A stretch of DNA of 64,000 nt from an uncultured Eubacteriales bacterium (GCA_964449165.1 CAYVAT010000004.1:91317-155316), one strand, 5' to 3'; shown: positions 14,648-17,746, counted from the stretch's first letter. The notes: generated by a model not told the origin, from the letters alone. Made by a program: numbers and translations.

Positions 14648-15895
14648 TTATATCTTGATAAACCAGCCCAAGCCAGGGGTGGTTAAGAACTGCCAGTCCA
14701 GAGAGGCATAAGGTTCCTCAGTCAAAACAGTGCAAATTTCTGCAATTGTTAAACATCGCATCCATGTATCAAACAGGCTGCTGTCCCACAAGGTTCTCTG
14801 GCTTCTGTTCCATCCTGTCTTGATAGTGGAATGGTGTCTTAATATTTTTTTAGAGTGGCTACGAATCCCTCTTCTGTTGATTATATACCAGTAATAAGGA
14901 TCTCCAGACCGGAAAATAGATGTGATAAGCTTCCAATATTCACTTAACTTCAGTTTTCGACGATTGGACCAGCAGAAACCTCCATCTGAGTTCTGATTCT
15001 CCAGGAGAGCTGAAAGAGAGCGTTTTAATGAAGCCCTTATGTCATCACGTCGATAATCATATTTGTGATAGAGATGGACTAGAGAAGCAGTTGCGTCTAT
15101 ATCGTCACACGAGCCCCCTCCCTGTCCAGGGAAATATAAACCATCCGGTTGCTGAAGAAAAAGAATCCTGTCGACTACCCGTTCCGCATATTGTACTTCA
15201 CGATCAAAATACTCGTAAATTAAAAATTGATGATAAAATCCTCCCATTCCAATGAAGTAATTGGAATCACGAGAAGTTCCCCAGAATCCGGTGCCGGGAT
15301 TCTGATGCCTGTCCATCCAGTCAAACCAAACATCCAGTGCTTCTCTTGCTTTATCATCCTCAAAATGTTCGTAGTTATAGGCAAGACATATTGCCAGAAA
15401 CATGACTTTATTCCCGCTATTCCAAGGATTTTCCCAATCTAGGCTATCCAGCCAGGAAGTCAAAGGAGTTATACCTTTCCATTCATCCAAGAAGCTCAGA
15501 GGATAATCTGGTTTATCTCCCAGTGCTTCAATTGCGCTGAGACAGAATGTGGTTAACTGTCTATTGAGGTGCTCTTCGTCATGAGTGGGATCAGTGATCC
15601 TTTCTGATGCTTGTGGGTCGACAAATAAACCTGTCTGCTCTTGCTGAAATCCTTTAAGATAAGTCAGCCACTCACTCCGTTGTTCATCTGAAAGCGTTTT
15701 TAAATCATTGAAGAGGTGCTTAATAAATACAGCAAAGCATGAGGTATAAACAGTGATATCAGAACCAGAGTTCAGGCGATAAGCCCATGAAGGACCCTCT
15801 TTATCATGCATTGTTTGAAGCCAGTTGAGGACTCGTTTTTTCAGGAGCATGGCGTTTTCTGGCGGAGGAGCTTTTTTTTCAACTTTATTTATCAT
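14648..15895 (-). CDS. Alpha/alpha-toroid protein with prenyltransferase/squalene-cyclase-type repeats, function unknown
   Basis: Repeated QxxDGxF/W-like motifs (LQQPDGLYFPGQGGG, ENQNSDGGFCW) and Trp/Tyr-rich helical hairpins typical of PFTB/terpene-cyclase toroids. Confidence 0.4.
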   Translation of the reverse strand: MINKVEKKAPPPENAMLLKKRVLNWLQTMHDKEGPSWAYRLNSGSDITVYTSCFAVFIKHLFNDLKTLSDEQRSEWLTYLKGFQQEQTGLFVDPQASERITDPTHDEEHLNRQLTTFCLSAIEALGDKPDYPLSFLDEWKGITPLTSWLDSLDWENPWNSGNKVMFLAICLAYNYEHFEDDKAREALDVWFDWMDRHQNPGTGFWGTSRDSNYFIGMGGFYHQFLIYEYFDREVQYAERVVDRILFLQQPDGLYFPGQGGGSCDDIDATASLVHLYHKYDYRRDDIRASLKRSLSALLENQNSDGGFCWSNRRKLKLSEYWKLITSIFRSGDPYYWYIINRRGIRSHSKKILRHHSTIKTGWNRSQRTLWDSSLFDTWMRCLTIAEICTVLTEEPYASLDWQFLTTPGLGWFIKI

Positions 15896-15907
15896 GCTCT
15901 ATTTCTT

Positions 15908-17746
15908 TCAGTTTCCCCTTAACCACTGTTCAAGCATGATAAACGTCCACAACCTGTTGCCCGATAATAGCGGAAGATTATCTCTAAACACTTGCCTGTT
16001 TAAAATTTCTCGTTTTATACATTCCCCATTGAGAAGAAACTGGTCAACCCATGATCGGGTTTTCCCTTTCCATGAATTCCAAGGCAGGCTGAAACCTTTT
16101 TTGCCACGCGTAAGAATTTCAGAGGGTAAAATGTCCTTCATGGTCTTTTTCAGCAGATACTTCTTTTCTTCATTCTTAAAGCGCAGGGCTGATGGTAATT
16201 TAAACACAAATTCAATGAGCTCATGGTCCAGTAAGGGTGGTCTGACTTCTAATGAGACTGCCATACTGGCACGATCGACTTTGGTAAGAATATCGGATGG
16301 AAGATATGTCTTCAGATCCAGATACTGAGCGCGGGTTAAAGGATCAAGGTCTTTATTCCAGAATTGACGGAAGTACCAATAGTCGTCATAGGTATTCAAA
16401 TTTTTTGCAAACCCAGAATCGAGCAGAAGACGTTTTTCCTCAGGCTTAAAAATTTGTACCAGATGAGCAAAGGGTTCAAGTGTATCTTCAGAGGCGATGT
16501 CTCTGATAAAATGATATCCCCATCTCTCTTCAGGCCATAGGATTGAAAGTGGTTTGAAGAAGAGTTTTTTAATGAAGGCCGGAAAATCAACCCAAGGCTC
16601 TCGTTTAAGCCACGTAGAATACCTTGGATATCCGATGAATACCTCGTCCCCTCCATCTCCTGAAAGTGCAACCTTAACATGCTCTCTGGCAATCCTGCAA
16701 ACTTCATAGGTTGGAATAGCTGAACTGTCTGCATAGGGTTCATCATATAGCCTAATAACTTGGGAGAGACTCTCTTGCAGTGATTCGATGCCGACTGTGG
16801 ACTCATAATGCTGGGTACGGAAACGGTCAGCAATTATTCTGGCAAAGCGGGTTTCTGAGTATTCTGCCACATCAAAACCAACCGTGCATGTGCAGAGTCT
16901 CTCACTGCTGTGAGTGCTTGCAAGTGAGGTTACGGTGCTGGAGTCAAATCCGCCGCTCAGGAGAACCCCGACTGGAACATCGCTTATCATATGAGATTGT
17001 ACGGCTTCCTTTAACTTGACCAGGAGGAGCTCTTCAGCCTGGGGCCCTGTTAATTGCTTTTTCTCCCCAAAATCGATATCCCAGTATTTGTGTTCTTGCA
17101 GAGCCTCATTTTCGTATCTAAGGATATGCCCTTCTTTTAACTTTCTGATATGGCTGTATATGGTCTTTGGAGGGGGAATATACAGGTATGTGAGATAATC
17201 AAAGAGGGCCGTTTGATCAATGTCCCTATTTAGTTCTGGATAGGGAAGTATTCCCTTAATCTCAGAAGAAAATATAAAAACTCTTCCGTCCCAGTAATAA
17301 AACAAAGGCTTAATACCCAGTCGGTCTCGGGCAAGGAGCATAATCTTGCGTTTTTCATCCCAAAGGGCAAATGCAAACATTCCCCTGAAACGTTTGATGC
17401 TGCTCTCTCCCCAGGCCTCATATGCATGGACGATGACTTCGGTATCTGTATTAGAGTGAAAGATGTGTCCAAGCTCTTCGAGTTCCTGCCTGAGGGATTG
17501 GTAGTTGTAAATCTCACCATTATACACTACCCAGACAGTTCCATCTTCATTTCTTAAAGGCTGCTTGCCACGAGATGAAAGGTCGATGATAGAAAGGCGT
17601 CTGTGGCCCAAAGCCACCGAGCCATCTCGAGCAAGGTACAACCCTTCGTCATCAGGTCCTCTGTGTGTTAAGCTATCTCTCATTTTTTTGACAATATCTG
17701 TCTCTATTTTCTTATTGGTGGATAGAATGCCGATGATTCCGCACAT
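15908..17746 (-). CDS. asnB: Asparagine synthetase B-family glutamine-dependent amidotransferase (WbpS/PseA-like sugar-acid amidotransferase candidate)
   Basis: MCGIIGIL N-terminal Ntn-Cys, class-II GATase domain, then SGGFDSS PP-loop of the Asn-synthase domain; 612 aa. Confidence 0.85.
   Translation of the reverse strand: MCGIIGILSTNKKIETDIVKKMRDSLTHRGPDDEGLYLARDGSVALGHRRLSIIDLSSRGKQPLRNEDGTVWVVYNGEIYNYQSLRQELEELGHIFHSNTDTEVIVHAYEAWGESSIKRFRGMFAFALWDEKRKIMLLARDRLGIKPLFYYWDGRVFIFSSEIKGILPYPELNRDIDQTALFDYLTYLYIPPPKTIYSHIRKLKEGHILRYENEALQEHKYWDIDFGEKKQLTGPQAEELLLVKLKEAVQSHMISDVPVGVLLSGGFDSSTVTSLASTHSSERLCTCTVGFDVAEYSETRFARIIADRFRTQHYESTVGIESLQESLSQVIRLYDEPYADSSAIPTYEVCRIAREHVKVALSGDGGDEVFIGYPRYSTWLKREPWVDFPAFIKKLFFKPLSILWPEERWGYHFIRDIASEDTLEPFAHLVQIFKPEEKRLLLDSGFAKNLNTYDDYWYFRQFWNKDLDPLTRAQYLDLKTYLPSDILTKVDRASMAVSLEVRPPLLDHELIEFVFKLPSALRFKNEEKKYLLKKTMKDILPSEILTRGKKGFSLPWNSWKGKTRSWVDQFLLNGECIKREILNRQVFRDNLPLLSGNRLWTFIMLEQWLRGN

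Follow-up and report, generated by a model that had tools for sequence, protein, structure and literature searches.

A prenyltransferase-fold toroid protein as a candidate partner of glycan transferases, and its AsnB-type neighbour, in a nonulosonic acid cluster

Two adjacent genes were analysed in a 64,000-nucleotide stretch of DNA from an uncultured Eubacteriales bacterium (GCA_964449165.1, CAYVAT010000004.1:91317-155316), called the window here. Both lie on the minus strand and start with ATG: one, at 14648-15895, encodes a 415-amino-acid (aa) alpha/alpha-toroid protein (the toroid), and the other, at 15908-17746, encodes a 612-aa AsnB-type amidotransferase, with 12 nucleotides (nt) between them. 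The toroid is a member of a widespread unnamed family of Bacteria and Archaea with no characterised member. Comparison of sequences across that family suggests that it probably works as a partner module for glycan transferases, its conserved residues forming a pocket that either binds a ligand or is catalytic. The fold superfamily is known; what is new is the distinctive conserved association of the toroid with glycan transferases and its invariant pocket. The toroid is a testable lead, not an explained system. The observation that started this work, an original prediction made from the sequence alone, is confirmed, and its interpretation is partly supported.

Glycan clusters are usually read as sugar-nucleotide enzymes, transferases and exporters, and a conserved soluble protein with a prenyltransferase fold fits none of these. 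The toroid is co-inherited with a specific family 4 glycosyltransferase (GT4), is translationally coupled or fused to glycosyltransferase (GT) and methyltransferase (MT) modules, and carries an invariant polar pocket.

Repeats and fold of the toroid protein

The original prediction described QxxDG(G/L)(F/Y/W)-type repeats in the 415-aa protein, and four copies are indeed present: Q84-QEQTGLF, Q198-NPGTGFW, Q248-QPDGLY and Q301-NSDGGF. When the pattern Q-x(2,3)-[DTNES]-G-x-[FYW] is applied, five overlapping matches are counted, a number that none of 20,000 shuffled sequences reached; one of the 20,000 reached four. The sole Pfam family match is Prenyltrans (PF00432, E = 3.2e-5), and its 24.0 bits fall short of the 26.5-bit gathering score, which several relatives exceed (34.0, 32.2, 29.7, 27.3 and 26.8 bits). 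NCBIfam gave only a faint squalene-cyclase match (TIGR01787, 15.6 bits against a cutoff of 322.7). Searching the PDB with the single sequence returned noise only, and searching it with a profile returned only sub-threshold matches (E 0.1-0.3), so the sequence alone does not place the toroid.

The structure was predicted with AlphaFold2 from 40 homologs, with a mean predicted local distance difference test score (pLDDT) of 93.7 and a predicted template modelling score (pTM) of 0.92. The model is an all-helical toroid with short hairpins at the repeat motifs, and the protein has the features of an (alpha/alpha)6 toroid with repeats of the type found in protein farnesyltransferase beta subunits (PFTB). 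The PF00432 match, the profile search, the AlphaFold2 model and the structural matches together support the earlier assignment to the prenyltransferase/terpene-cyclase superfamily. Structure prediction had also been proposed as a way to discriminate a PFTB-like toroid from one like the glycoside hydrolases (GH). It confirmed the toroid fold but discriminated poorly between the two, since Foldseek placed GH88 above the beta subunit of geranylgeranyltransferase I (GGTase-I). All of the leading matches were weak (E 4.6e-4 to 4e-3), with GH88 first (E 4.6e-4) and single-domain cyclases and GH105 also ahead.

No transmembrane segment or signal peptide was found in the toroid (maximum KD19 1.1), and it is predicted to be a soluble, cytoplasmic protein. 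A reading of the fold as a thioester domain, like the TED of A2M/C3, was rejected because the residue three places beyond C263 is not Gln.

Conserved polar residues

Conservation was counted over 114 non-redundant relatives sharing less than 60% identity. H222, mid-way along the inner helix 214-229 (15230-15232, minus strand), is present in all 114, and N162, in the first turns of the inner helix 157-178 (15410-15412, minus strand), is present in 111. At the N-terminus of the inner helix 262-278 lies the motif C263-D-D265-I-D267 (15095-15109, minus strand), a candidate metal or acid centre. C263 is kept in 112 relatives (98%) and D267 in 113 (99%), and position 265 is Asp or Glu in 113 (92% D, 7% E). 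The family consensus is C-x-[DE]-x-D-A, which the toroid matches with C263-D-D-I-D267-A. R380, on the inner helix 374-387, is less strictly conserved (92 of 114).

Of 32 fusion proteins, 29 retain the full His-Cys-Asp-Asp core. One lineage of toroid-GT2 proteins (P0128, P0203 and P0204; 740 aa) lost N162, C263 and D267 together, to E, G and A, keeping H222, D265 and R380; to judge from these substitutions, it looks like a degenerate pocket in a retained domain.

By the secondary structure of the model, the conserved residues sit at the N-termini or in the middle of inner helices, which would be the fold's usual active-site face. On this face prenyltransferases hold zinc and diphosphate, and class II cyclases carry their DxDD motif. 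The same pocket is found across loci making very different glycans, and this suggests an invariant ligand or an invariant catalytic role.

Toroid fusions and gene neighbourhoods

The original prediction regarded a protein of this kind as unusual inside a nucleotide-sugar operon. The opposite was found. Glycan-locus context and fusions to GT and MT modules recur across phyla, so the family is characteristic of glycan loci, which seem to be its home. Long proteins (>560 aa) drawn from the 150 best representatives of the profile search were scanned for domains, and all 20 that were scanned carry class I methyltransferase (Methyltransf_11/25), GT2 and/or GT4 domains. The fusions come in many orders: MT-toroid, toroid-MT, GT2-toroid, GT4-toroid, toroid-GT2, MT-toroid-GT2, and MT-toroid-GT2-GT2-GT4, the last a protein of about 1,650 aa. 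Stand-alone toroid genes make up about 84% of the sequences at hand.

The neighbouring genes tell the same story as the fusions. Across 17 genome loci, 84 genes fall no more than three positions from the toroid; 16 are GT4s, 5 Wzx-type flippases, 4 GT2s and 4 methyltransferases. The toroid gene is usually directly upstream of a glycosyltransferase gene, and its stop codon often overlaps the start codon of the downstream gene. That downstream gene is a GT4 in five loci (L005, L011, L013, L014 and L016), a GT2 in two archaeal loci (L017 and L019), a methyltransferase in L015 and L028, and, in the clade of the window protein, a Capsule_synth gene (KpsC/KpsS-like; window, L027 and L029). In L006 and L007 it is a 528-aa open reading frame (ORF), matched by size only.

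The toroid-adjacent GT4s of Gammaproteobacteria, Chloroflexota, Acidobacteriota and Bacteroidales are mutual best BLAST matches and outscore the other GT4s of their own loci. Such mutual best matches point to toroid plus GT4 as a conserved two-gene cassette. The GT4 beside the toroid (in L005, L010, L011, L013, L014, L016 and L022) forms its own subfamily across several phyla, and the best NCBIfam match of these partner GT4s is the PEP-CTERM-associated stp3 family, below cutoff.

Family members are found in loci with different export systems: ABC-transporter-type loci with Wzm/Wzt and Wzt_C (L025 and L026) and Wzx/Wzy loci (L005 and L024). They also lie beside exosortase genes (L002-L004) and in loci for nonulosonic acids (NulO).

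Three marine (TARA) contigs (L002:8037-21224, L003 and L004) share a distinctive arrangement, in which the toroid gene lies between a 75-aa PP-binding carrier protein and the exosortase EpsH. Upstream of the toroid are genes for a 576-aa unknown protein, a MaoC dehydratase and an MBOAT protein. Further downstream are a 1026-aa PPDK_N/PEP-utilizers protein, a Peptidase_C26/GATase, an NTP_transf_3 protein and a methyltransferase, a set that resembles the Campylobacter O-methyl-phosphoramidate genes (Cj1418/1417/1416 plus a methyltransferase). The longest fusion has a different kind of neighbourhood: in L023:10001-14947 a 1,648-aa MT-toroid-GT2-GT2-GT4 protein is encoded beside the housekeeping genes ffh, rpsP, rimM, trmD and rplS, followed only by a small GT2 before the contig end, with no exporter visible within reach.

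Size and spread of the toroid family

An exhaustive profile search put the family at 1,640 representative clusters with E<=1e-3, 462 of them with E<=1e-30. A word-indexed search found 50 relatives, none with an informative name. The closest genome match of the toroid is in Candidatus Aminicenans sakinawicola, at 82% identity. Other genome matches are spread over Aminicenantes, KSB1, Chloroflexota, Acidobacteriota, Gammaproteobacteria, Planctomycetota, Bacteroidales, Verrucomicrobiota and Patescibacteria, with Thiohalobacter, Phycisphaerales, Opitutia and Calditrichaceae among the further taxa, and reach the Archaea in Methanosarcina and Methanolobus.

Members are named only "hypothetical" or, automatically, "prenyltransferase beta subunit", also in a second search seeded with a Bacteroidales member. 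Cluster members that are fusion proteins carry only generic names of the kind "glycosyltransferase.../SAM-dependent methyltransferase". A literature search found no paper on a prenyltransferase-like or toroid protein in polysaccharide loci.

A divergent branch of the family is carried on plasmids. In all, 124 plasmids (from cultured Rhizobiaceae and others; also Martelella and Haloarcula) encode a 545-550-aa "acyltransferase" that is made of an N-terminal hexapeptide (LbH) acyltransferase and a divergent toroid, scoring 72 bits to the family profile. Examples are L032:8278-9915 and L033:8245-9897, from Agrobacterium vitis and Rhizobium. The LbH-fused toroid retains C263 and D267; H222 is replaced by R, N162 by A and D265 by L. 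In A. vitis the gene sits with sugar ABC importers, GH88, DUF2264 and GH38, and by its gene content the locus looks catabolic.

Proposed role of the toroid

The proposed mechanism starts from the funnel at the N-terminal ends of the inner helices, which bears N162, H222, C263, D265, D267 and R380 and would be the working part. By likeness to the structural relatives that hold prenyl diphosphates, this funnel may bind the polyprenyl-diphosphate-sugar head of a lipid-linked intermediate. Contacts to the diphosphate would come from H222, N162 and R380, and C263, D265 and D267 would serve as ligands of a divalent metal. In this way the toroid would present the acceptor to the attached or adjacent transferase. 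In the window, the likeliest candidate for that partner is the KpsC/KpsS-like ulosonic-acid transferase whose gene comes next downstream; other lineages would use a specific GT4 subfamily, a GT2 or an S-adenosylmethionine (SAM) methyltransferase, often in one polypeptide with the toroid.

Three considerations lead to a lipid head as the ligand. The close structural relatives all bind prenyl diphosphate; loci for very different glycans, in Bacteria and Archaea alike, have just one chemical feature in common, the lipid carrier; and the set of His, Asn, Arg, Asp/Asp and Cys residues suits a metal-diphosphate site. Even so, that the ligand is a polyprenyl-diphosphate end is a possibility to be held with some doubt. 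GGTase-I beta ranks twelfth in the Foldseek search, and prenyltransferases are not favoured there. The LbH-fused subfamily of A. vitis lies in a sugar-import and GH locus, where no lipid carrier is expected. The transferases of long ABC-transporter-type polymerases act at the non-reducing end, far from the lipid, which favours a glycan-directed module, and we know of no precedent in these pathways for a soluble protein that extracts the head group of a C55 lipid. Finally, invariant residues are equally expected of a catalytic site acting on variable sugars. These points weigh against the lipid head. The full explanation, which joins the partner module and this mechanism to an AsnB that acts independently, is offered tentatively.

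The reading nearly equal to the lipid-head one is that the toroid is itself a sugar-acting enzyme, which modifies the growing glycan either ahead of the partner transferase or following it; this too is possible without being likely. Several chemistries come to mind. It could be a de-N-acetylase or transacylase, using Cys/His/Asp or a metal, following the logic of paired GTs and deacetylases known from MshA/MshB, BshA/BshB and LpxC-LpxD. It could be a hydrolase or transglycosylase with an Asp as its acid, trimming or priming chains in the manner of MmpH or the toroid of cyclic-glucan synthase, or it could be a two-base epimerase. The near-invariant polar H222, C263, D265, D267 and N162, three of which were lost jointly in one lineage, are typical of catalytic sites. 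The partners have three donor folds (SAM-dependent MT, GT-A/GT-B and LbH acyltransferase) and share a carbohydrate acceptor, and an enzyme fits the polymerase-type fusions better than lipid-head binding does. The cluster in which the mycobacterial MmpH operates also has a GT and methyltransferases, the same trio as in the toroid fusions, which recall the mycobacterial methylmannose polysaccharide cluster (structure 7qsj).

Sequence families do not point the same way. The toroid has no similarity to any GH, carbohydrate esterase (CE) or epimerase family at E<=0.01. It matches none of the sequence families of the carbohydrate-active (alpha/alpha)6 toroids (GH88/GH105, the AGE/cellobiose 2-epimerases and MmpH), and these lack its QxxDGGF repeats. 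Membership of a six-hairpin glycoside hydrolase family (GH88/GH105) with a mapped catalytic Asp was not found. No single chemistry is indicated, and one common reaction would be needed across loci making very different sugars.

Less likely is a non-catalytic scaffold, spacer or carbohydrate-binding module (CBM) that organises complexes of GTs and MTs, with Cys/His/Asp as a structural metal site only; the toroid might, for example, replace the coiled-coil "ruler" or the CBM of O-antigen terminators. Wzt_C-type transporters depend on chain-end recognition, and family members occur with such transporters. The P0128 lineage, too, keeps the domain despite the loss of N162, C263 and D267. The MT-toroid-GT2-GT2-GT4 fusion has the same layout as the O-antigen terminator/polymerase proteins E. 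coli O9a WbdD and K. pneumoniae O7 ORF6, large cytoplasmic proteins that combine a SAM methyltransferase with an extra module and several GTs and that belong to ABC-transporter-dependent loci with Wzt_C, as do the family members in L025 and L026. ORF6 is a modular O-antigen protein with the order MT-kinase-CBM-coiled coil-GT-GT (PMC11231755), and the toroid stands between the MT and the GTs, where ORF6 has its kinase, CBM and coiled coil. In contrast to WbdD and ORF6, the extra module is a toroid and not a kinase or coiled coil, most members stand alone, and members also occur in Wzx/Wzy loci and in archaea. Four polar residues conserved at 98-100% among relatives of less than 60% identity go beyond the needs of a spacer, stand-alone genes predominate, and domain order varies, as one would sooner expect of catalytic modules that work autonomously.

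The prenyltransferase beta subunits (farnesyltransferase (FTase), GGTase-I and RabGGTase; PF00432) share with the toroid the (alpha/alpha)6 fold and the Q-x-x-D-G-G-F hairpin repeats, and PF00432 matches across the toroid family are borderline or positive. Identity is only 10-13%. The conserved Cys, Asp and His of the toroid are of the same ligand types as the FTase zinc site (D297, C299 and H362), and C263-x-D265 is presumably in the same repeat phase as the FTase beta ligands D297-x-C299. The order differs: the toroid His is on the inner helix preceding the Cys/Asp helix, whereas in rat FTase beta it follows, so the toroid site is probably not the same as the FTase zinc site. Unlike the beta subunits, the toroid is prokaryotic, lies in glycan loci and is fused to GT and MT modules, and there is no evidence that it has protein or prenyl substrates.

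Among the class II terpene cyclases (SHC, OSC, MstE and SsDMS), C263-x-D265-x-D267 takes the position of DxDD in a weak profile alignment, falling on that motif of the drimenyl-PP synthase SsDMS with a domain score of 3.8 bits, and the toroid's Asp next to the invariant His recalls the Asp-His pair of SHC. Unlike these cyclases, the toroid has no DxDD motif, scores far below the TIGR01787 cutoff and has no terpenoid genes nearby; its invariant Cys is not a class II cyclase feature.

A true isoprenoid enzyme that lies in a sugar cluster by chance, either a protein-prenyltransferase beta subunit or a single-domain class II terpene cyclase, is highly improbable: PF00432 is the only family match and C-x-D-x-D aligns weakly with DxDD, but no PPTA-repeat alpha-subunit protein or isoprenoid-pathway gene was found among the window cluster genes or the 25 commonest families of the 84 neighbours (17 loci), the glycan-locus context and the GT/MT fusions are consistent across phyla, and DxDD is not kept (C-D-D-I-D-A).

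Taken with the proposed role as a partner of transferases, the family might be an unrecognised class of glycan-assembly module that arose from the prenyltransferase/terpene-cyclase fold and has an invariant His/Cys/Asp/Asp centre, either a docking subunit for the lipid carrier or a new sugar-modifying enzyme, although we hold this tentatively. If either were true, there would be an unassigned step in thousands of O-antigen, capsule, exopolysaccharide (EPS) and archaeal glycan loci. Binding of the lipid carrier would link an isoprenoid-binding toroid fold to polysaccharide assembly and give a handle on how soluble transferases find membrane-bound acceptors; catalysis would make the toroid a new class of carbohydrate-modifying enzyme. 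The signature C-x-[DE]-x-D plus H and N lets these genes be annotated as something other than "prenyltransferase beta subunit".

Adjacency of the toroid and AsnB genes

The two genes had been reported together, and a functional pair did not hold up. Besides the window, AsnB sits just before the toroid only in certain close relatives (L001, L007 and L029). Two other loci, L006 (Ca. A. sakinawicola) and L027, lack AsnB at this place, and the toroid gene there comes straight after the same epimerase/dehydratase gene. Orthologs of this 332-aa epimerase/dehydratase (about 70% identity) keep their position in L001, L006 and L007 and serve as a synteny anchor. The 25 commonest families among the 84 toroid neighbours do not include AsnB. 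A functional pair was rejected because AsnB is missing at this place in L006 and L027 and does not appear in those 25 families. Because AsnB comes and goes between the same flanking genes, the adjacency is, on the gene orders compared, lineage-specific, and the functions of the two proteins are independent.

The AsnB paralog

The 612-aa protein has the domains of an asparagine synthetase-type amidotransferase, with Pfam matches to Asn_synthase (309 bits), GATase_7 (163 bits) and GATase_6. Cys2, in the N-terminal sequence MCGIIGIL (17741-17743, minus strand), is the predicted glutaminase nucleophile, a role taken from what is known of class II (Ntn) amidotransferases. The PP-loop SGGFDS, residues 264-269 of the synthetase domain (16940-16957, minus strand), is the putative ATP pyrophosphatase/adenylation site, as in the AsnB family.

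The protein was described as the type of enzyme that amidates sugar acids, and this description fits the evidence: it appears to be a glycan-locus amidotransferase and not a housekeeping enzyme. Its best NCBIfam match is TIGR03108 (eps_aminotran_1; 665.3 bits, residues 1-610 against 1-626 of 628), and three relatives, at 82%, 50% and 50% identity, are all surrounded by genes for glycosyltransferases and sugar-nucleotide enzymes, with two copies in one case. Its score is above the cutoff of the general asparagine-synthase model TIGR01536 (505 bits against 267), but it fails the housekeeping E. coli-type model NF006949 (304.6 bits against 499), and its alignment to E. coli AsnB (1ct9; 147 bits) is limited to residues 24-374. 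The two copies mentioned above are in L030:7001-15779, where paralogs of 627 and 638 aa lie in one GT-rich locus, split by GT genes and a DDE transposase.

TIGR03108 includes WbpS (P. aeruginosa O6), WbqG (E. coli O121) and P. gingivalis PGN_1234; WbqG is required for uronamide, and deletion of PGN_1234 abolishes it (PMC7468200). Like these proteins, the window AsnB has an intact Cys2 and PP-loop and lies in a glycan cluster with a nucleotide-sugar dehydrogenase, which probably supplies the uronic acid for AsnB to amidate. Unlike the setting of eps_aminotran_1, no exosortase or PEP-CTERM genes were seen in the window.

In the proposed reaction of AsnB, Cys2 would carry out glutamine hydrolysis, the SGGFDS site would activate a sugar carboxylate by adenylation, and an amide would result. 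The most likely product is a hexuronamide derived from the uronic acid of the cluster's dehydrogenase. On balance, AsnB seems to be an ordinary WbpS/WbqG-like amidotransferase forming a uronamide. Its presence leads to the expectation of an amidated sugar acid and otherwise offers little novelty. Weighing against this reading are the TIGR03108 score, which is below the 816.9-bit cutoff; the distance of about 8 kb from AsnB to the dehydrogenase; and the tentative assignment of Tanf_01265 (AsnB, 605 aa) to the 5-acetamidino group of Pse5Am7Gra in T. forsythia (PMC6120980).

The alternative, rather unlikely, is that AsnB turns an N-acetyl group of the nonulosonic acid into an acetamidino group or is a housekeeping asparagine synthetase. 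Tanf_01265 lies in a NulO and BFO_1060-transferase cluster, with its role assigned putatively (PMC6120980), and the window cluster is NulO-centred. The T. forsythia O-glycosylation cluster shares the window's repertoire: NulO synthesis, a BFO_1060-like transferase (GtfS/BFO_1060), AsnB, a dehydrogenase (WecC) and a methyltransferase. It also lists WecB and has no toroid gene described, while the window has two NulO branches and KpsC-like transferases. The T. forsythia glycan contains ManNAcCONH2 as well as the acetamidino-NulO (PMC6120980), and the proven relatives WbqG and PGN_1234 make uronamides (PMC7468200). For an acetamidino group, homology gives no support to the PseA-like reading that had been put forward.

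PseA/WbpG-type enzymes are a different family from AsnB, and by family knowledge the chemistry of AsnB activates a carboxylate. The passed TIGR01536 model speaks for a housekeeping role. The unmet E. coli-type model, the absence of the gene at the same position in L006 and L027, and the 50%-identity homologs in GT-rich loci speak against it. Acetamidino formation by AsnB is thus unproven and a housekeeping role unlikely.

Gene layout of the cluster

Both genes lie within a co-directional minus-strand run of about 25 kb, from about 26975 down to 2123. The label of a "sugar locus" is correct for this NulO/glycan cluster. Directly upstream of AsnB, the 332-aa NAD-dependent sugar epimerase/dehydratase is at 17786-18784 (minus strand; Pfam GDP_Man_Dehyd/Epimerase). 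On the other side, the gene 3' of the toroid begins 76 nt past the toroid stop; it encodes the 531-aa KpsC/KpsS-like (Capsule_synth) putative ulosonic-acid glycosyltransferase (12976-14571, minus strand; PF05159, 43.7 bits), which has weak KpsC matches in the PDB. Next comes a 488-aa distant relative of the Tannerella BFO_1060-type nonulosonic-acid transferases (11497-12963, minus strand; NF046086, E 2.4e-16), whose 59.8 bits are below the cutoff of 200; the role of that family is taken from PMC5420450. A BLASTP comparison of the 531-aa and 488-aa proteins gave E = 0.074, so they are not demonstrably paralogs.

There are two NeuB-type nonulosonic acid synthases, the first at 21974-23011 (minus strand; TIGR03569, 375 bits) and the second at 10338-11393 (minus strand; TIGR03569, 432 bits, above the 399.65 cutoff), and two PseF/NeuA-like (CMP-NulO-type) cytidylyltransferases (23949-24668 and 3392-4168, both minus strand). 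They form two apparently complete NulO branches (3392-11393 and 17786-25708), each with a synthase and a cytidylyltransferase. Two candidate ulosonic-acid transferases, 531-aa KpsC-like and 488-aa BFO_1060-like, are also present, and this combination suggests that the cluster's glycan carries two different NulO residues.

The CBS-fused nucleotide-sugar 6-dehydrogenase is at 6261-7943 (minus strand; TIGR03026, 345.6 bits, above the 189.8 cutoff); its best equivalogs are UDP-ManNAc dehydrogenases, with scores under their cutoffs. The cluster also encodes a NeuC-like 2-epimerase, a CBS-nucleotidyltransferase, LegB-like dehydratases, a LegC/PseC-like aminotransferase, a NeuD-type acetyltransferase, an FkbM methyltransferase and a weak Wzz-like protein. 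The LptD gene at 28800-31052 shows that the Aminicenantes-like organism is diderm. A tRNA scan of the window detected none.

A xylose-isomerase-like TIM-barrel protein is encoded at 8834-9715 (minus strand), directly after the NeuB/NeuD pair, with a match to AP_endonuc_2 and weak matches to CbiR and MNIO-type families. The order of NeuB/NeuD and then a TIM barrel recurs in L029, and the protein may be a step in nonulosonic acid modification. The last cluster gene, at 2123-3283 (minus strand), encodes 386 aa, with a hydrophobic stretch at the N-terminus and an isochorismatase-domain match that is only partial (residues 294-349).

The ORFs of the CBS-nucleotidyltransferase and the NeuC-like epimerase (18784-19947 and 19833-21038, minus strand) overlap by 115 nt. 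The homologs of the nucleotidyltransferase are 349-358 aa, against 387 aa here, so its true start is probably a later Met.

G+C content is 0.36-0.37 in several 2-kb bins of 26001-30000 and 38001-44000, and 0.42-0.48 elsewhere. One low-G+C bin covers a 774-aa Laminin_G_3 protein (37444-39768), and the adjoining 40-42-kb bin (G+C 0.42) has an LPG_synthase_TM protein (41531-42502). The 42-44-kb bin, again low in G+C, contains a radical SAM/SPASM gene (42587-43561).

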